From Enterobacteria phage vB_EcoM_IME339, in the sequence record MH051915: 64,000 nt of DNA; one strand, 5' to 3'. The translations under genes and the position numbers were made by a program. Positions 5,785 to 17,669 of the stretch are shown here, one piece after another; position 1 is the first letter of the stretch, and every line of letters starts with the position of its first letter. A model generated the notes under the pieces. That model did not search any database and had not been told where the DNA came from. It was given only the letters and a program-made list of their open reading frames with translations.

Positions 5785-6014
5785 GTGAAAAACCAATTAC
5801 TACTAAAGAATTCCAAGAAAAAGTTAAACTATTTGCTCAAGAATTGGTAAATAAGGTTTCTGAACGATTTCCTGAAACGTCGGTTCGTGTTATTACCGAA
5901 ACTCCTCGTTCAGTATTAGTAATTGTGAATCCAGGTGATGGTGACCAAATAACACATCTTAAACTGGATTTTGATGGATTAGTTGAAGCACAAAGGGTGT
6001 ATGGCGTACTATGA
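5778..6014 (+). CDS. Hypothetical protein, 78 aa
   Basis: ORF, AAGGAG upstream. Confidence 0.5.
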   Translation: MLSEKPITTKEFQEKVKLFAQELVNKVSERFPETSVRVITETPRSVLVIVNPGDGDQITHLKLDFDGLVEAQRVYGVL

Positions 6015-6349
6015 TGAATTTAACTGATATAATTGATAATTGTCTTGAAAATGATACTGGCGATCATAGAGCGCTTGATTCTGAAACAGCACAGTTCATT
6101 AGAATAACTTTAATGAATGATACTCTAGTGAATAGTATTCATCCTTCTGTGTATGATGCTATTATTGTGACGAAGTATCCAGTTGAGCTTCACAAAAAGA
6201 TGGCTGGTGCAATTTTTATTGATAAGAAAAACCGCTTTAAAGATGGGCAGAATATAATTAGTTCTGTTATTAAAAGTATAACTAAACTTCGTCACGAAAT
6301 TTATCGTGTTGAAACTGCTAAATCTGCTTATCTGGTGATTATGAAATGA
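6011..6349 (+). CDS. Hypothetical protein, 112 aa
   Basis: ORF, ATGA overlap with neighbours. Confidence 0.5.
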   Translation: MMNLTDIIDNCLENDTGDHRALDSETAQFIRITLMNDTLVNSIHPSVYDAIIVTKYPVELHKKMAGAIFIDKKNRFKDGQNIISSVIKSITKLRHEIYRVETAKSAYLVIMK

Positions 6350-6927
6350 AAGCGAGTACAGTACTTCAAATTGCATATTTAGTATCACAAGAATCAAAAT
6401 GTTGCTCCTGGAAGGTAGGAGCAGTAATTGAAAAGAATGGACGTATTATTTCTACCGGATATAATGGTTCTCCGGCAGGTGGTGTGAATTGCTGCGATTA
6501 TGCTGCCGAGCAAGGTTGGTTGCTGAATAAGCCTAAACATACTATCATTCAAGGTCATAAGCCTGAATGCGTATCGTTTGGTTCAACTGACCGTTTTGTT
6601 TTGGCGAAAGAACACCGCAGCGCTCACTCTGAATGGTCGTCTAAAAATGAAATTCATGCTGAACTAAATGCGATTTTGTTTGCTGCACGAAACGGTTCTT
6701 CAATTGAAGGTGCTACTATGTATGTAACACTTTCTCCTTGCCCGGATTGTGCAAAAGCCATAGCTCAATCTGGAATTAAAAAACTGGTTTATTGCGAAAC
6801 ATACGATAAGAATAAACCTGGCTGGGATGATATTCTGCGAAATGCAGGTATTGAAGTGTTTAATGTTCCTAAGAAAAACTTGAATAAGTTAAATTGGGAA
6901 AATATCAACGAATTCTGTGGTGAATAA
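6346..6927 (+). CDS. cd: dCMP deaminase, 193 aa
   Basis: Zinc-binding deaminase motifs HAELNAI and SPCPDCAKAI; length and position match T4 cd. Confidence 0.92.
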   Translation: MKASTVLQIAYLVSQESKCCSWKVGAVIEKNGRIISTGYNGSPAGGVNCCDYAAEQGWLLNKPKHTIIQGHKPECVSFGSTDRFVLAKEHRSAHSEWSSKNEIHAELNAILFAARNGSSIEGATMYVTLSPCPDCAKAIAQSGIKKLVYCETYDKNKPGWDDILRNAGIEVFNVPKKNLNKLNWENINEFCGE

Positions 6928-10034: not shown

Positions 10035-10237
10035 ATATAATTAATAAGATTTTTGGAATTCAGTACATTAAGGTCACATATAAAGTAACGTATAAAGGTC
10101 CGTATACCGATGAACATGAAGAGCCACAAGTTCAGTCTATTATATTAGAAAAGGACCCTAACTGGCCAGTTGAATTTCGTCTTCCTTGCTATGGTCATTG
10201 GGCTGATGTTGAAATTATAAGTATTGAAAATGTCTGA
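10031..10237 (+). CDS. Hypothetical protein, 68 aa
   Basis: ORF, ATGA overlap. Confidence 0.5.
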   Translation: MNIINKIFGIQYIKVTYKVTYKGPYTDEHEEPQVQSIILEKDPNWPVEFRLPCYGHWADVEIISIENV

Positions 10238-10688
10238 GTTAGAGATTAGAAGCAATTTTAGATGGCCATCATGTGCATTAAGTAATTTCGCCCAATGGCC
10301 TTTTGTTATGGATGGTATCCAATTTGGAGGTCTCGAAGGATTCCTCCAAGGATGCAAGGTGAAAAATGTTGAACAACAGCGTCGTATATTTGGGTTATCC
10401 GGGCTTGCCGCCCAACAAGCTGGAAGGTCTTATGCAAGAGCTCAGGACCGTGGCACGTTGTTCTGGCTTGGAACTCCGTTTTCAAGATATTCCGAAGCAT
10501 GGAAAGAATTATACACAAATGCATATTTTGAAGCAGCGATCCAAAACAAGGGATTTCGCAATGCATTACAAGCCTCGAAAGGAAAAGTTTTGAAGCATAG
10601 CATGGCTAGTGGTCTAACAAAAGATGATACAATACTAACCGAAGCTGAATTTATTGATGTGTTAAACCTATTAAGAGACTCTCTATGA
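10230..10688 (+). CDS. NADAR/YbiA-like (DUF1768) domain protein, about 152 aa
   Basis: LSNFAQWPFVMDGIQFGGLEGFLQGCK matches the NADAR signature (YbiA FSNFAAWPIKVDGKTWPTSEHYFQAQK); track start 10224 is TTG, ATG at 10230. Confidence 0.7.
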   Translation: MSELEIRSNFRWPSCALSNFAQWPFVMDGIQFGGLEGFLQGCKVKNVEQQRRIFGLSGLAAQQAGRSYARAQDRGTLFWLGTPFSRYSEAWKELYTNAYFEAAIQNKGFRNALQASKGKVLKHSMASGLTKDDTILTEAEFIDVLNLLRDSL

Positions 10689-11548
10689 AGCCAACTATTT
10701 TGACTGATATTGATGGAGTATGTTTAAGCTGGCAATCAGGCCTTCCTTATTTTGCTCAGAAATATAATCTTCCATTAGAACATATTTTAAAAATGATCCA
10801 AGATGAGAAATTTATTTCTCCAGGTAAACTCTTTAATTGTGACGAAGAACTTGGCGTCAAGTTAATTGAAAAATACAATCGTTCAGATTTTATTCGTTAT
10901 TTGTCTCCGTATAAAGATGCCCTGTGTGTAATTAACAAATTAAAAGAAGATTATAATTTTGTAGCTGTTACAGCATTGGGTGATTCTATTGACGCTCTGT
11001 TGAATCGTCAATTTAATTTGAATGCTCTTTTTCCTGGTGCCTTCTCAGAAGTAATGATGTGTGGTCATGATTCTTCAAAAGAAGAGTTATTCAAAAAGGC
11101 AAAAGAGAAATATAACGTAATTTGTTATATTGACGATCTCGCTCACCACTGCGACCATGCGAGTGAAATATTAAATGTTCCGGTTTATTGGATGGCTCGA
11201 GGAGAGCGTGATAAAATTCCAAAAACTGCGCAGCGAGTTTATACATGGAATGATGTAGAAAATAAGCTTTTTTCACCAAAGGAAAATAAAGAAAGTTTTG
11301 ATAGTGAAAAAGCTATAAAAGATGTAATTGAGAAGATGGTTAAAAACGATTCTTTTCGTTGGAACACTACCTGGAGAACTCCTGGATTTAATCCGTATAA
11401 TCCATATTATACACATCCATATAATCCATATTATACACACCCGTATCATATGAATCCATTCCATACGTGGAGTTATACCAAGCCTGGCGATGCAGGGTAT
11501 TTTAATAGATTTACTAGTGGTGATAATATTTTCCAAGGAGCATTCTAA
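10685..11548 (+). CDS. HAD-superfamily hydrolase-like protein with C-terminal Pro/Tyr/His-rich repeat tail, 287 aa
   Basis: N-terminal motif I ILTDIDGV (DxDG), later CYIDDLAHHCD; C-terminus NPYNPYYTHPYNPYYTHPYHMNPFHTW. Confidence 0.65.
   Translation: MKPTILTDIDGVCLSWQSGLPYFAQKYNLPLEHILKMIQDEKFISPGKLFNCDEELGVKLIEKYNRSDFIRYLSPYKDALCVINKLKEDYNFVAVTALGDSIDALLNRQFNLNALFPGAFSEVMMCGHDSSKEELFKKAKEKYNVICYIDDLAHHCDHASEILNVPVYWMARGERDKIPKTAQRVYTWNDVENKLFSPKENKESFDSEKAIKDVIEKMVKNDSFRWNTTWRTPGFNPYNPYYTHPYNPYYTHPYHMNPFHTWSYTKPGDAGYFNRFTSGDNIFQGAF
11401..11448 (+). repeat. Imperfect 24-bp tandem direct repeat (2 copies) encoding the PYNPYYTH repeat
   Basis: tccatattatacacatccatataa / tccatattatacacacccgtatca. 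Confidence 0.6.
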
Positions 11549-11817
11549 TGTTTGTCGTTCACACTATTTATGAAAATGAAGGTAATACTACGCGTGATTA
11601 CGGTCACGTAAATCAATTTTTTAGATGCAATCCAGAGTTCCGAGCTCAAAAGGATGAACGAATTTTTAAAAAATGTGTAGAGCAAGGTTTCATTTATATC
11701 AAGCACTGGATGCAAGGAAATAAAGTTAGAACTACATATCATAGGTCTTTAACTGAGCTTAATGATGAATTGATTTATAATAGAGCTGTAAATCAAACTC
11801 TGAAGGATGAACAATGA
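11548..11817 (+). CDS. Hypothetical protein, 89 aa
   Basis: ORF with AAGGAG SD immediately upstream of ligase. Confidence 0.55.
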   Translation: MFVVHTIYENEGNTTRDYGHVNQFFRCNPEFRAQKDERIFKKCVEQGFIYIKHWMQGNKVRTTYHRSLTELNDELIYNRAVNQTLKDEQ

Positions 11818-13277
11818 TTCTTAAAATTCTGAATGAAATAGCATCTATTGGATCAACTAAGCAGAAGCAAGCAATTCTTGAAAAGAATAAAGATAATGAA
11901 TTGCTTAAACGAGTATATCGTCTGACTTATTCTCGTGGGTTACAGTATTATATCAAGAAATGGCCTAAACCTGGTATTGCTACCCAGAGTTTTGGAATGC
12001 TGACTATTACCGATATGCTTGACTTCATTGAATTCACGTTAGCTACTCGGAAATTGACTGGAAATGCTGCAATTGAGGAATTAACTGGATATATCACTGA
12101 TGGTAAAAAGGATGATGTTGAAGTTTTGCGTCGAGTTATGATGCGAGACCTTGAATGTGGTGCTTCAGTATCTATTGCAAACAAAGTTTGGCCAGGTTTA
12201 ATTCCTGAACAACCTCAAATGCTAGCAAGTTCTTATGATGAAAAAGGCATTAATAAGAATATCAAGTTTCCAGCTTTTGCACAGCTAAAAGCAGATGGAG
12301 CTCGGTGTTTTGCTGAAGTTCGAGGTGATGAATTAGATGATGTTCGTCTTTTATCACGAGCTGGTAATGAATATCTAGGATTAGATCTTCTTAAGGAAGA
12401 GTTAATCAAAATGACTGCTGAAGCCCGCCAGATTCATCCAGAAGGTGTGTTAATTGATGGCGAATTGGTATACCATGAGCAAGTTAAAAAGGAACCAGAA
12501 GGCCTAGATTTTCTTTTTGATGCTTATCCTGAAATTAGTAAAGCTAAAGAATTCGCCGAAGTAGCGGAATCTCGTACTGCTTCTAATGGAATCGCCAATA
12601 AATCCTTAAAAGGAACCATTTCTGAAAAAGAAGCTCAATGCATGAAGTTTCAGGTCTGGGATTATGTCCCGTTGGTAGAAATATACGGTCTTCCGGCATT
12701 TCGTTTAAAATATGATGTACGTTTTTCTAAACTAGAACAAATGACATCAGGATATGATAAAGTAATTTTAATTGAAAACCAAGTAGTAAATAACCTAGAT
12801 GAAGCTAAGGTAATTTATAAAAAGTATATTGACCAAGGTCTCGAAGGTATTATTCTCAAAAATACCGATGGATTGTGGGAAAATGCTCGTTCAAAAAATC
12901 TCTATAAATTTAAAGAAGTAATTGATGTTGATTTAAAAATTGTAGGAATTTATCCTCACCGTAAAGACCCTACTAAAGCGGGTGGGTTTATTCTTGAATC
13001 AGAGTGTGGAAAAATTAAAGTAAATGCAGGTTCAGGCTTAAAAGATAAAGCCGGTGTAAAATCGCATGAACTTGACCGTACTCGCATTATGGAAAACCAA
13101 AATTATTATATTGGAAAAATTCTAGAGTGCGAATGCAACGGTTGGTTAAAATCTGATGGCCGCACTGATTACGTTAAATTATTTCTTCCGATTGCGATTC
13201 GTTTGCGTGAAGATAAAACTAAAGCTAATACATTCGAAGATGTATTTGGTGATTTTCATGAGGTAACTGGTCTATGA
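11814..13277 (+). CDS. 30: ATP-dependent DNA ligase (gp30), 487 aa
   Basis: Translation MILKILNEIASIGSTKQKQAILEKNKDNELLKRVYRL... recognised as T4 DNA ligase; contains adenylation-site KADGAR (motif I). Confidence 0.95.
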   Translation: MILKILNEIASIGSTKQKQAILEKNKDNELLKRVYRLTYSRGLQYYIKKWPKPGIATQSFGMLTITDMLDFIEFTLATRKLTGNAAIEELTGYITDGKKDDVEVLRRVMMRDLECGASVSIANKVWPGLIPEQPQMLASSYDEKGINKNIKFPAFAQLKADGARCFAEVRGDELDDVRLLSRAGNEYLGLDLLKEELIKMTAEARQIHPEGVLIDGELVYHEQVKKEPEGLDFLFDAYPEISKAKEFAEVAESRTASNGIANKSLKGTISEKEAQCMKFQVWDYVPLVEIYGLPAFRLKYDVRFSKLEQMTSGYDKVILIENQVVNNLDEAKVIYKKYIDQGLEGIILKNTDGLWENARSKNLYKFKEVIDVDLKIVGIYPHRKDPTKAGGFILESECGKIKVNAGSGLKDKAGVKSHELDRTRIMENQNYYIGKILECECNGWLKSDGRTDYVKLFLPIAIRLREDKTKANTFEDVFGDFHEVTGL

Positions 13278-13462: not shown

Positions 13463-13482
13463 AGGCCTTCGGGCCTTTAATT
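13462..13482 (+). terminator. Stem-loop AAGGCCTTCGGGCCTT with T-rich tail
   Basis: Perfect stem with TTCG loop followed by TAATTTTAT. Confidence 0.6.
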
Positions 13483-13483
13483 T

Positions 13484-13491
13484 TATAAATA
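13484..13491 (+). promoter_or_regulatory. Late-promoter motif TATAAATA upstream of alt
   Basis: Exact octamer about 25 nt upstream of the alt ATG, consistent with late expression of a packaged protein. Confidence 0.5.
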
Positions 13492-13514
13492 GAATAAACA
13501 CTAGAGAGGATATG

Positions 13515-15608
13515 ATGGAACTCATTACAGAATTATTTGACGAAGATACTACTCTTCCGATTACAAACTTAAATCCAAAGAAGAAAATACCACAAATTTT
13601 TTCAGTTCATGTTGATGACGCAATTGAACAACCAGGCTTTCGTTTATGTACCTATACATCTGGAGGTGATACTAACCGTGATCTAAAGATGGGCGATAAA
13701 ATGATGCATATTGTTCCTTTTACATTAACTGCTAAAGGTTCAATTGCTAAATTAAAAGGTCTCGGTCCAAGCCCAATTAATTATATCAATTCAGTTTTTA
13801 CTGTTGCGATGCAGACGATGCGTCAGTATAAAATTGATGCCTGTATGCTCCGTATTCTTAAGTCTAAAACTGCTGGTCAAGCTCGTCAAATTCAACTTAT
13901 TGCTGATAGACTTATCCGTAGTCGCTCAGGCGGCAGATACGTCCTTCTTAAGGAACTTTGGGATTACGATAAAAAGTATGCATATATTCTTATACATCGC
14001 AAAAATGTATCACTAGAAGACATTCCAGGAGTTCCGGAAATTAGTACCGAGCTCTTTACTAAAGTTGAATCGAAGGTCGGTGATGTTTATATCAATAAAG
14101 ATACTGGAGCTCAAGTAACTAAAAATGAGGCAATTGCTGCATCTATTGCGCAAGAAAATGATAAACGTTCTGACCAAGCTGTAATCGTTAAAGTTAAAAT
14201 TTCCCGTAGAGCAATTGCACAAAGTCAATCATTAGAATCTTCTAGATTTGAAAGTGAATTATTCCAGAAGTATGAATCTACCGCAGCTAATTTCAATAAA
14301 CCTGCTACCGCTCCTTTAATTCCCGAAGCGGAAGAAATGAAACTTGGAATTAATTCAATAGCTTCTAAAACTAAGGCAGCAAAAATCATTGCCGAAGGAA
14401 CTGCAGATGAACTTCACTATGATTATAAATTCTTTTCAAAAAGTGAGGTTAATGAAGTTTCTGAAAAAATTAAAGATGTAATTCTTAATGCGATTAAAAA
14501 TGAACCAACTACTTCAATAAAATGTTTAGAGAAATACGCAGCAGCTGTTAATCAATTCTTTGAAGAATATAAAGATAATTGGCTTGATAAACATAATAAA
14601 ACTCGTAAAGGGCAGCCAGATGAAGTCTGGGAAGAAATAACTAAAAATTCCTGGAATGCAGCAAAAACTAAATTCCTTAAAAGAATGATTTATAGCTTTT
14701 CTGGAATTGGTGCAGGTCCAATGATTGATATTACTATTGCCCGTGATGGTTCTAAATATACTCCATCACAAAAGCGCGGCATTAGAGAGTATTGTGGTTC
14801 AGGATATACTGACATCAATAATCTTCTTTTGGGTCGTTACAATCCAGAACGATATGATGTAATGAGTGAAAAAGAAATTGAATCTGCTATAAATAACTTA
14901 GATTCAGCTTTTGAAAATGGCGACCGTATACCAGAAGGCATTACAGTTTATCGTGCTCAAAGCATGACTGCTCCTATATACGAAGCATTAGTTAAAAATA
15001 AAGTATTCTATTTCAGAAATTTTGTATCTACTTCTTTAACTCCTATCATTTTTGGACGTTTTGGAATTACGCATGCTGGTATTGGTCTTTTAGAACCAGA
15101 AGCTCGTAATGAATTGACAGTTGATAAAAATGAAGAAGGAATAACTATTAATCCAAACGAAATAAGAGCGTATAAAGAAAATCCTGAATACGTTAAAGTT
15201 CAAATAGGATGGGCAATTGATGGAGCTCATAAAGTTAATGTTGTATATCCAGGAAGTCTCGGAATAGCAACAGAAGCTGAAGTTATTCTACCACGCGGAT
15301 TGATGGTCAAAGTTAATAAAATAACTGATGCTTCTAATAACGATGGAACAACATCTAATAATACAAAACTCATTCAAGCTGAAGTTATGACTACGGAAGA
15401 ACTCACCGAATCGGTAATTTATGACGGTGACCGTCTAATGGAAACTGGTGAAGTAGTTGCAATGACAGGTGATATTGAAATAGAAGACAGAGTTGACTTT
15501 GCATCATTTGTTTCATCAAATGTTAAACAAAAAGTAGAATCATCTCTTGGAATTATTGCGTCTTGCATAGATATTACAAACATGCCTTACAAGTTCGTTC
15601 AAGGATAA
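13515..15608 (+). CDS. alt: Alt-type mono-ADP-ribosyltransferase (packaged internal head protein), 697 aa
   Basis: N-terminus MELITELFD; C-terminal R-S-E ART signature (YRAQS, FVSTSL, EAEVILPRG); located next to ligase as in T4. Confidence 0.88.
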   Translation: MELITELFDEDTTLPITNLNPKKKIPQIFSVHVDDAIEQPGFRLCTYTSGGDTNRDLKMGDKMMHIVPFTLTAKGSIAKLKGLGPSPINYINSVFTVAMQTMRQYKIDACMLRILKSKTAGQARQIQLIADRLIRSRSGGRYVLLKELWDYDKKYAYILIHRKNVSLEDIPGVPEISTELFTKVESKVGDVYINKDTGAQVTKNEAIAASIAQENDKRSDQAVIVKVKISRRAIAQSQSLESSRFESELFQKYESTAANFNKPATAPLIPEAEEMKLGINSIASKTKAAKIIAEGTADELHYDYKFFSKSEVNEVSEKIKDVILNAIKNEPTTSIKCLEKYAAAVNQFFEEYKDNWLDKHNKTRKGQPDEVWEEITKNSWNAAKTKFLKRMIYSFSGIGAGPMIDITIARDGSKYTPSQKRGIREYCGSGYTDINNLLLGRYNPERYDVMSEKEIESAINNLDSAFENGDRIPEGITVYRAQSMTAPIYEALVKNKVFYFRNFVSTSLTPIIFGRFGITHAGIGLLEPEARNELTVDKNEEGITINPNEIRAYKENPEYVKVQIGWAIDGAHKVNVVYPGSLGIATEAEVILPRGLMVKVNKITDASNNDGTTSNNTKLIQAEVMTTEELTESVIYDGDRLMETGEVVAMTGDIEIEDRVDFASFVSSNVKQKVESSLGIIASCIDITNMPYKFVQG

Positions 15609-15611
15609 ATC

Positions 15612-17669
15612 ATGGAACTTATTACAGAATTATTTGACGGCGCTTCGGCGCCGGTTGTTAACTTAAATCCTAAGCATAAAATACCTCAAATTTTTGCTAT
15701 TCAAGCTGGTGAAGAAAGCGTGCTTCCTGGATTTAGATTTTGTACATACACCTCTGGCGGTGATACAAATAAAAACGTTAAGCCAGGCGATAAAATGATG
15801 CATATCGTAATGATAGGTGTTAATGAGAAACTATCATTAGTTAAACTTAAAAACTTGGGTGGAAATCCAATTGGTGTCATTAATGCGGTTTTTGATACTG
15901 CTCTTCAAACAATGAAACAGTATAAAATTGATGCATGCTTATTCCGCGTACTAAAAAGTAAAACAAATGGCGCTGCTCGTCAAATGCAAGTTATTGCTGA
16001 CCGTTTAGTACGTACTAAAGGAGCAGGTCGATATGTTCTTTTAAAGGAAATCTGGGATTATGATAAAAAGTATGCATATATTATGGTTTACCGTAAAAAT
16101 GCCAATTTAGAAGACATTCCAGGTGTACCTCCTATTTCAACTGAGTTATTCACAAAAGTTGAATCAAAGGTTGGTGATGTTTATGTAGATGTTAAAACAG
16201 GTAATGCTGTTCCTAAAGCTGTTGCTGTTGCTGCTTCTATTGCTTTAGAAAATGATAAGCGCACGGATCAAGCTGTTATTCAGAAAACTAAAATTAGTCG
16301 TCGATTAGCAGCACAAGCTCAATATTCTACTGTCGATGCTTCACTACAGGGTGATAGCTTCGCTGCCAAGAAATATCAAGAGTTTGAATCTAAAGTTCCG
16401 GTATATAAAGCAGAAGGACCAATGAACTCTGGCGTTATTCAGATTGGTTCAAACTTCGGCAAAGGAGCTATCGGTGGTATGAGAAGTGCTTCTCGTTTTA
16501 AATCTAACGATTATGAACTAGAAAGCTTCCGAAATCATATTGCATTGGCCCATGCACGTTTACGTGATCCGTCTATCAGGCTGCAGAGCGATATAACACA
16601 TCAAGGTTCTCAAGAATATTTAAAGAATAAAGAATTCTTTGATTATAAAACCGATAAAATTTTGAGCGATCTCGCTGACATTAATATTTCTAATAGCTTT
16701 GATGTTATTAAGAAAATTATCAATGATTTAGTTAAAGGTTCTAAAGCCACGCCAGATGAAAAGGTAGCTATTATTCAATTTGTCATGAATGGCATTTATA
16801 AATTGATTAATGAATCTGCTGCTCAGGCATATGAATACGCAAGCACCGAAGTAACTCCAAAAGGACTGACTCAGGCTGAGTCTAATGTAATTGAAGATTA
16901 TTGTGCAGATTCATATGTTGAAATGAACTCGTTCCTCTTGGGTAAACCAGATTCTACCCGTGAAGAATACATGGAACGAGCTATTAAACACATCGAGACG
17001 CTGGATTCTGCATTCGCCAAAGGATCAGTTCTTCCTCCAGGAACTACGCTTTATCGTGGACAAGAAGTTACTTTTAAAACTTTACGCCATAATATTGAAA
17101 ATAAAATGTTCTATTTCAAGAACTTCGTATCAACATCGCTTAAACCAAATATCTTCGGTGAGCATGGTAAAAACTATATGGCTCTAGATGATTCCGGCGC
17201 AGTATTTTCTGGTGAAGGAGAAGGTTCTGTTGATGCTGAAGATTTAATGCATATGGGTAGTCATTCTGCATATGCTAATGAAGATGCTGAAACTAGCGTA
17301 GGTATGGTAATTAAAGGGGCTGAGCGAATCAAAGTTATCGTTCCAGGTCATTTATCAGGATTTCCATCAGAAGCTGAAGTTATTCTACCGCGTGGAATTT
17401 TGTTGAAGATTAATAAAGTAAGCACGTATATGATGAAAGAAACTGCTTATAACAAGTATCTAATCGAAGGCACAATCGTTCCTCCTTCTGAACAATTAGA
17501 AGAATCGGTATATGATGGCGATCATCTAATGGAAACTGGCGAAGTTCGTCCAATGGCTGGGTTTAATCAATTCCTTGTAGAAGAATCAAAAGAAGAGGAA
17601 AACGAAGTTTCTCAAATCTTGGCTTCTTTGGTTAACATCAACGGAATGTCTAAAAAGTTCAAGATGTAG
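15612..17669 (+). CDS. Second Alt-type ADP-ribosyltransferase paralogue, 685 aa
   Basis: Starts 3 nt after alt stop; N-terminus MELITELFD; high similarity over first ~225 aa, divergent centre, conserved ART motifs (YRGQE, FVSTSL, EAEVILPRG). Confidence 0.85.
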   Translation: MELITELFDGASAPVVNLNPKHKIPQIFAIQAGEESVLPGFRFCTYTSGGDTNKNVKPGDKMMHIVMIGVNEKLSLVKLKNLGGNPIGVINAVFDTALQTMKQYKIDACLFRVLKSKTNGAARQMQVIADRLVRTKGAGRYVLLKEIWDYDKKYAYIMVYRKNANLEDIPGVPPISTELFTKVESKVGDVYVDVKTGNAVPKAVAVAASIALENDKRTDQAVIQKTKISRRLAAQAQYSTVDASLQGDSFAAKKYQEFESKVPVYKAEGPMNSGVIQIGSNFGKGAIGGMRSASRFKSNDYELESFRNHIALAHARLRDPSIRLQSDITHQGSQEYLKNKEFFDYKTDKILSDLADINISNSFDVIKKIINDLVKGSKATPDEKVAIIQFVMNGIYKLINESAAQAYEYASTEVTPKGLTQAESNVIEDYCADSYVEMNSFLLGKPDSTREEYMERAIKHIETLDSAFAKGSVLPPGTTLYRGQEVTFKTLRHNIENKMFYFKNFVSTSLKPNIFGEHGKNYMALDDSGAVFSGEGEGSVDAEDLMHMGSHSAYANEDAETSVGMVIKGAERIKVIVPGHLSGFPSEAEVILPRGILLKINKVSTYMMKETAYNKYLIEGTIVPPSEQLEESVYDGDHLMETGEVRPMAGFNQFLVEESKEEENEVSQILASLVNINGMSKKFKM

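Follow-up and report, generated by a model that had tools for sequence, protein, structure and literature searches.

The window analysed here is a stretch of 64,000 nucleotides from Enterobacteria phage vB_EcoM_IME339 (sequence record MH051915), a Tequatrovirus genome, and one of its open reading frames (ORFs) is very probably the orthologue of T4 gene 30.3 (adfN), encoding an orphan, antitoxin-like NADAR enzyme that would remove ADP-ribose from guanine and thereby act against DarTG1. Orthology, fold, conservation of residues, integrity of the gene and synteny are established in the present analysis. Enzymatic activity and the anti-DarTG1 phenotype have been described for the T4 protein, which is 97% identical, and by analogy the window allele is expected to share them. 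For the T4 orthologue, the gene family, fold, catalytic residues, in vitro activity and role against DarTG1 are already known from work published between 2012 and 2025.

The adfN gene and its T4 counterpart

The window protein is identical to T4 gp30.3 (NP_049816) at 148 of 152 positions in a gapless alignment, and it matches the Pfam family PF08010 (Phage_30_3) over the entire profile (all of positions 1-138; E=5.8e-69 and 230.7 bits, the cut-off being 36). The two proteins are of equal length, the two genes have the same overlaps at their start and stop codons, and both are preceded by 30.4 and followed by 30.2, 30.1 and ligase. In addition, both alleles have E36, K43 and H123 as well as the C-terminal helix. 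The differences are limited to V82T, P89E, D111N and I125M (T4 to window), all of which fall in variable columns of the family alignment and none at an invariant column, and the last 27 residues of the window protein (126-152) are identical to those of T4. Because the allele is full length, has a C-terminus identical to that of T4 and carries its substitutions in variable columns, the same function is assigned to it with high confidence. A defective allele of the type found in phage RB69, which is described below, was considered and is ruled out, the window protein being full length.

The ORF list and its translation place the gene on the plus strand, from an ATG at 10230 to a TGA at 10686-10688. 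The mechanically made list begins the ORF two codons further 5', at a TTG (10224); starting at the ATG gives the exact N-terminus of T4 gp30.3. The original prediction, which had been made from the letters of the window, was right in both coordinates and sequence, and the motif it quoted, LSNFAQWPFVMDGIQFGGLEGFLQGCK, corresponds to residues 17-43. The adfN ATG shares bases with the stop codon of the preceding ORF (ATGTCTGA), and its own stop codon shares the bases ATGA with the start codon of gene 30.2. Neighbouring ORFs match the Pfam families of T4 gp30.8, gp30.7 and gp30.1 (DUF3045), and the order 30.8-30.7-30.6-30.5-30.4-30.3-30.2-30.1-ligase is common to the window and the annotated T4 genome.

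That adfN is a genuine gene, and no chance ORF, is confirmed by the PF08010 match, by its homologues (102 in the database search, with relatives of gp30.3 encoded on 236 viral contigs), and by its spread among genomes. For instance, at least 80% of a 2.5-kb query around adfN is covered in 489 phage genomes, nearly all of them from T4-like phages of Escherichia, Shigella or Yersinia, and Shigella phage vb_GEC_SH_GT matches the same query with 99.2% identity. In most of the phage records listed for this query adfN is labelled 'hypothetical protein'.

Membership of the NADAR superfamily

The link to the NADAR superfamily was drawn from a set of 60 homologues with 35-88% identity. PF08719, the NADAR family of Pfam, is matched by 25 of the 60 members (best E=1.5e-7), and several homologues are named 'YbiA (DUF1768 family)' by JGI. 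The gp30.3 family profile finds the Protein Data Bank (PDB) sequence of E. coli YbiA (2B3W) at E=0.0068, and an hhalign comparison of the gp30.3 family with 32 YbiA-family proteins gives a probability of 97.2% (E=3.2e-11, 119 columns). The AlphaFold2 model, for which the family alignment served as input, is confident, with a pLDDT of 92.9 and a pTM of 0.88. Judged from these profile comparisons, membership of the window protein in the NADAR superfamily, in the phage gp30.3/AdfN clade represented by PF08010, holds, and the NADAR/YbiA-like identity proposed in the original prediction agrees with both the hhalign probability and the PF08719 matches within the family.

With regard to individual residues (Table 1), hhalign pairs E36 with YbiA E48 and K43 with YbiA K55. 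In the case of the last beta-strand, two earlier studies (PMC11125620, PMC11543638) present a histidine as the defining mark of the phage gp30.3 clade, and equate H123 with Glu125 of YbiA-type NADARs and with the Asp of DarG1-type NADARs. The hhalign pairing differs, in that H123 is set opposite YbiA H126, the residue after E125; H123 as the structural counterpart of Glu125 is thus taken here as an assignment of the literature. No conserved acid is found at position 122 or 123, residue 122 being variable among the sequences shown and H123 invariant. In T4 AdfN, rescue is weakened by E36A as well as by K43A, and in vitro activity is lost altogether with E36A (PMC11825919). The RB69 allele carries a frameshift that removes the last 15 residues, RB69 is sensitive to DarTG1, and T4 AdfN cut at the RB69 truncation point has reduced activity (PMC11825919). 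By analogy, the C-terminal helix of the window protein is probably required for full activity.

Although gp30.3 functions like a DarG1 antitoxin, it is not one, nor does it belong to the YbiA family. The DarG1 NADARs (BC4488 family; Geobacter lovleyi 8BAT, E. coli C7) are paired with DarT1, whereas the window gp30.3 is an orphan: no DarT1 gene adjoins adfN, the neighbours being 30.4 and the HAD-like 30.2, and the nearest ADP-ribosyltransferases (ARTs) are of the Alt type and lie 2.8 kb away. DarG1 proteins have an Asp in the last strand where gp30.3 has a His, the 8BAT chain is 219 residues long as against 152 amino acids (aa) for the window protein, and identity between the two is 13-15%, with no PADLOC match for gp30.3. 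Moreover, the papers concerned (PMC11825919, PMC11125620) indicate that T4 AdfN cannot stand in for DarG1 in uninfected cells. The YbiA family (E. coli YbiA 2B3W, Phytophthora nicotianae NADAR 8BAU; PF08719) is 19-20% identical to gp30.3, which in the hhalign alignment keeps neither the 'WGDGG' segment of YbiA nor the family Glu125, and which is found in a different biological setting.

Action against DarTG1 and other possible roles

Purified T4 gp30.3 strips ADP-ribose from guanosine, and not from thymidine, in DNA (Toxins 2024, PMC11125620). The Methods of that paper list a T4 gp30.3 construct of 'residues 1-208', whereas the protein has 152 aa in RefSeq and in the window. The gene was found by recombination mapping that paired RB69, a phage sensitive to DarTG1, with T2 or T4, and was named adfN, its product being the anti-DarT factor NADAR (Nat Commun 2025, PMC11825919). 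In the same study, deletion of adfN abolished plaque formation by T4 and T2 on hosts carrying DarTG1, and adfN expressed in trans rescued RB69. A 2025 transposon-sequencing preprint likewise shows adfN to be conditionally essential, with transposon insertions lost on a DarTG1 host. Taken together, these publications show that AdfN is both necessary for T-even phages to resist DarTG1 and sufficient for it. The suggestion in the original prediction that the ORF is a candidate anti-DarTG factor is therefore supported by what is known of the T4 orthologue (PMC11125620, PMC11825919, preprint), and the plaquing defect that it had anticipated for a deletion mutant on DarTG hosts has been borne out for T4 and T2 (PMC11825919).

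A mechanism can be proposed for the window allele along the same lines. In a host carrying DarTG1, DarT1 would ADP-ribosylate guanines of the phage DNA and block replication, and AdfN would cut the N-glycosidic bond between ADP-ribose and guanine, such that the DNA is restored and replication proceeds. E36 and the last-strand H123 would be expected at the distal ribose, K43 may bind the diphosphate, and the C-terminal helix would contribute to full activity. The AdfN proteins of Bas32 and Bas60 (T5-like and Vequintavirinae phages) are likewise orphan NADARs of phages that act against DarTG1 and are specific for the guanine adduct (PMC11825919). They differ, however, in having arisen by independent acquisition from other branches of the NADARs, and in being active without a T-even infection, which the T4-type AdfN is not (PMC11825919).

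Several observations weigh against this reading. The window allele, whose activity is probable by homology, differs from T4 at the four positions given above, and I125M lies two residues from H123, although both Ile and Met occur at position 125 among the homologues shown in the alignment. The original prediction had expected the conserved catalytic acidic residues of NADARs, and this stands for E36, the sole acid kept, and fails for the second, the last-strand Glu or Asp of other NADARs, which is replaced by H123. It had also held that the absence of a significant PF08719 hit would speak against the assignment, and for the window protein taken singly no such hit is found by hmmscan against Pfam at E<=1, where PF08010 is the only match, in contrast to the 25 family members that do match. 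Nor is there a match by phmmer against PDB sequences at E<=10, in NCBIfam, or in PADLOC at E<=0.1. The lack of a direct PF08719 match is explained by the fact that Pfam models the phage clade separately as PF08010, and since direct detection as a NADAR failed, family profiles and structure were required to make the link. Finally, PMC11125620 reports that T4 gp30.3 fails to protect E. coli against DarT1, which runs counter to the rescue of DarT toxicity envisaged in the original prediction; together with PMC11825919 it indicates that AdfN fails to neutralise DarT1 when the cells are not infected, and T4 AdfN barely helps T5 or Bas25 (PMC11825919). These failures imply that the mechanism is incomplete.

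T4 AdfN works fully only in T-even infection, and DNA hydroxymethylation or glucosylation is not the reason (PMC11825919). There is a small chance that a co-encoded phage protein, gp30.2 being one candidate, directs AdfN to replicating phage DNA, or that the adducts of the phage's own Alt or Mod transferases are a further substrate of AdfN. The coupling of gene 30.2 to adfN is a weak lead in this direction, and in T4-like phages with identity as low as about 43%, gp30.2 still lies within about 1.7 kb downstream of adfN. In a search for partner genes, 1,340 ORFs were taken from 80 related viral loci and clustered; the sole genes to recur were DNA ligase, at 21 of the 80 loci, and gp30.2, at 18, in both cases solely in T4-like genomes. 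As the missing T-even cofactor gp30.2 is unsupported, being absent from most distant loci and receiving no mention in the text that describes the transposon screen on DarTG1.

It is quite unlikely that, rather than removing DarT1 adducts, AdfN erases or regulates the ADP-ribosylation of host proteins carried out by the phage itself (through Alt, ModA or ModB, RNA-linked modification included) or shields phage molecules from these transferases. On the same strand, 2.8 kb downstream of adfN, there are two Alt paralogues, and Iyer et al. 2022 (PMC9503650) had already remarked on the closeness of ART genes to the NADAR genes of T4-like phages. However, the alt genes are cut off from adfN by a GC-rich hairpin and by a T4 late-promoter motif of their own, TATAAATA, which is enriched in the window (21 copies as against 9 expected), and Alt is packaged in the capsid according to the T4 record. 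The hairpin and TATAAATA set the 30.x/ligase unit apart from late-expressed alt, and the alt genes therefore adjoin the compact 30.x operon and are not part of it. Thus, the original prediction was correct as to the presence of Alt genes, and incorrect in assigning them to the early unit of adfN; the link between adfN and Alt is positional only, and a role in the regulation of Alt adducts finds no support. The NADARs tested in PMC11125620, T4 gp30.3 among them, hydrolyse guanosine-linked and not thymidine-linked ADP-ribose, and the accessible parts of published work on these NADARs contain no test of protein-linked ADP-ribose. The known phenotype depends on DarTG1 (PMC11825919, preprint). In the survey of 80 loci, no toxin, DarT or ART partner recurs among the clustered ORFs, and 58 of the loci lack 30.2 and ligase within 4 kb, with no adjoining ART noticed.

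Less probable still is a role in degrading soluble immune signals derived from ADP-ribose (cyclic ADP-ribose isomers of the Thoeris type) instead of DNA adducts. Such a role was put forward for phage NADARs on contextual grounds by Iyer et al. 2022 (PMC9503650), and a jumbo-phage homologue does lie near a Nudix gene, but the direct experiments concern de-ADP-ribosylation of DNA and a phenotype specific to DarTG1 (PMC11825919, PMC11125620, preprint). A housekeeping YbiA-type N-glycosidase that destroys reactive intermediates of the riboflavin pathway is hardly credible, given that gp30.3 belongs to a separate clade with a His for Glu125 and about 20% identity with YbiA, that adfN lies among replication and early genes of a phage, and that its known phenotype is anti-defence. 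The removal of guanine-linked ADP-ribose as a defence against DarTG1 is accordingly preferred for AdfN.

Neighbouring genes and overlapping reading frames

Table 1. Positions of adfN, of the elements within it and of adjacent features in the window.
Feature	Position	Strand	Description
adfN (T4 gene 30.3) coding sequence	10230..10688	+	152 aa and stop; predicted phage-clade NADAR ADP-ribosylglycohydrolase
N-terminal NADAR motif LSNFAQWPFVMDGIQFGGLEGFLQGCK	10278..10358	+	residues 17-43; holds E36 and K43
Codon of E36, putative catalytic residue	10335-10337	+	invariant in 60 homologues
Codon of K43, putative phosphate-binding residue	10356-10358	+	at least 90% conserved in 60 homologues
Codon of H123, last beta-strand	10596..10598	+	invariant in 60 homologues; strand 120-123 in model
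C-terminal helix, residues 138-152	10641..10685	+	helix 138-151 in AlphaFold2 model
ORF 30.3'	10366-10593	+	inside adfN, +1 frame; 75 codons
Gene 30.2	10685-11548	+	287 aa; ATGA-coupled to adfN
24-nucleotide tandem repeat, gp30.2 C-terminal tail	11391-11446	+	2.3 copies, 90% match; NPYYTHPY units
DNA ligase (T4 gene 30)	11814-13277		ORF of 487 aa
GC-rich hairpin AAAGGCCTTCGGGCCTTT followed by T's	13463-13483	+	between ligase/alt.1 region and first alt
T4 late-promoter motif TATAAATA	13484-13491	+	directly after hairpin; about 20 nucleotides before first alt start
Alt-type ART paralogue 1	13512-15608	+	698 aa; PF03496 E=1.6e-37; 70% identical to T4 Alt
Alt-type ART paralogue 2	15612-17669	+	685 aa; PF03496 E=2.4e-20; 42% identical to T4 Alt

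The product of gene 30.2 has no Pfam match, and is 'hypothetical' in most phage records. It contains the HAD motif DxDG (D8, D10), and K132, D150 and D151 are invariant. Residues 1-190 of its AlphaFold2 model have block-mean pLDDT values above 90, and Foldseek returns HAD hydrolases, the most compact matches being 5'(3')-deoxyribonucleotidases (3BWV, 2JAO, 2I7D). From the model, gp30.2 is predicted to be a HAD-fold hydrolase closest to the 5'(3')-deoxyribonucleotidases. The tail that bears the tandem repeat is disordered and rich in Pro, Tyr and His (pLDDT <50), and varies widely in length, homologues ranging from 196 to 347 aa. T4 gp30.2 is 10 residues shorter at the repeat, so that repeat copy number differs between close relatives.

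The two Alt paralogues of the window are full length and in tandem, whereas T4 has one alt together with the fragments alt.-1 and alt.-2, left over from a duplication according to the T4 record. In the first paralogue, the central part with the catalytic domain is far more diverged from T4 Alt than are the N- and C-terminal ends.

Beyond the T4-like phages, distant homologues of gp30.3 are found amid helicase- or primase-like replication genes, or with Nudix and Thg1 genes close by, on phage contigs whose lengths lie between a few kb and about 380 kb. For instance, a 308-kb, jumbo-phage-like contig from ENA (L083) encodes at 6001-6468 a gp30.3-family protein of 38% identity, in the vicinity of Nudix hydrolase, Thg1-like and AAA ATPase genes, a context that differs from the ligase neighbourhood of the T4 type.

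Within adfN, the T4 record annotates 30.3' as 'internal translation in a different reading frame'. The ATG of this ORF is kept in T4 and in the window, but is lost (to ACG, ATT or ATC) in eight of the 13 viral-contig alleles, and one of the 13 has an internal stop. Identity is 57-85% in the 30.3' frame as against 84-98% in that of adfN. On the loss of the ATG, the internal stop and the faster divergence relative to the main frame, 30.3' as a conserved coding sequence is rejected, as judged from these alleles.

As to why the T4-type enzyme works only in T-even infection, the window offers no easier test bed than T4 itself. A reading of the raw sequence, made without tools, nonetheless recovered a true and recently proven counter-defence gene. 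The practical gain is one of annotation, in that the ORF can be labelled adfN (DNA ADP-ribosylglycohydrolase, anti-DarTG1).
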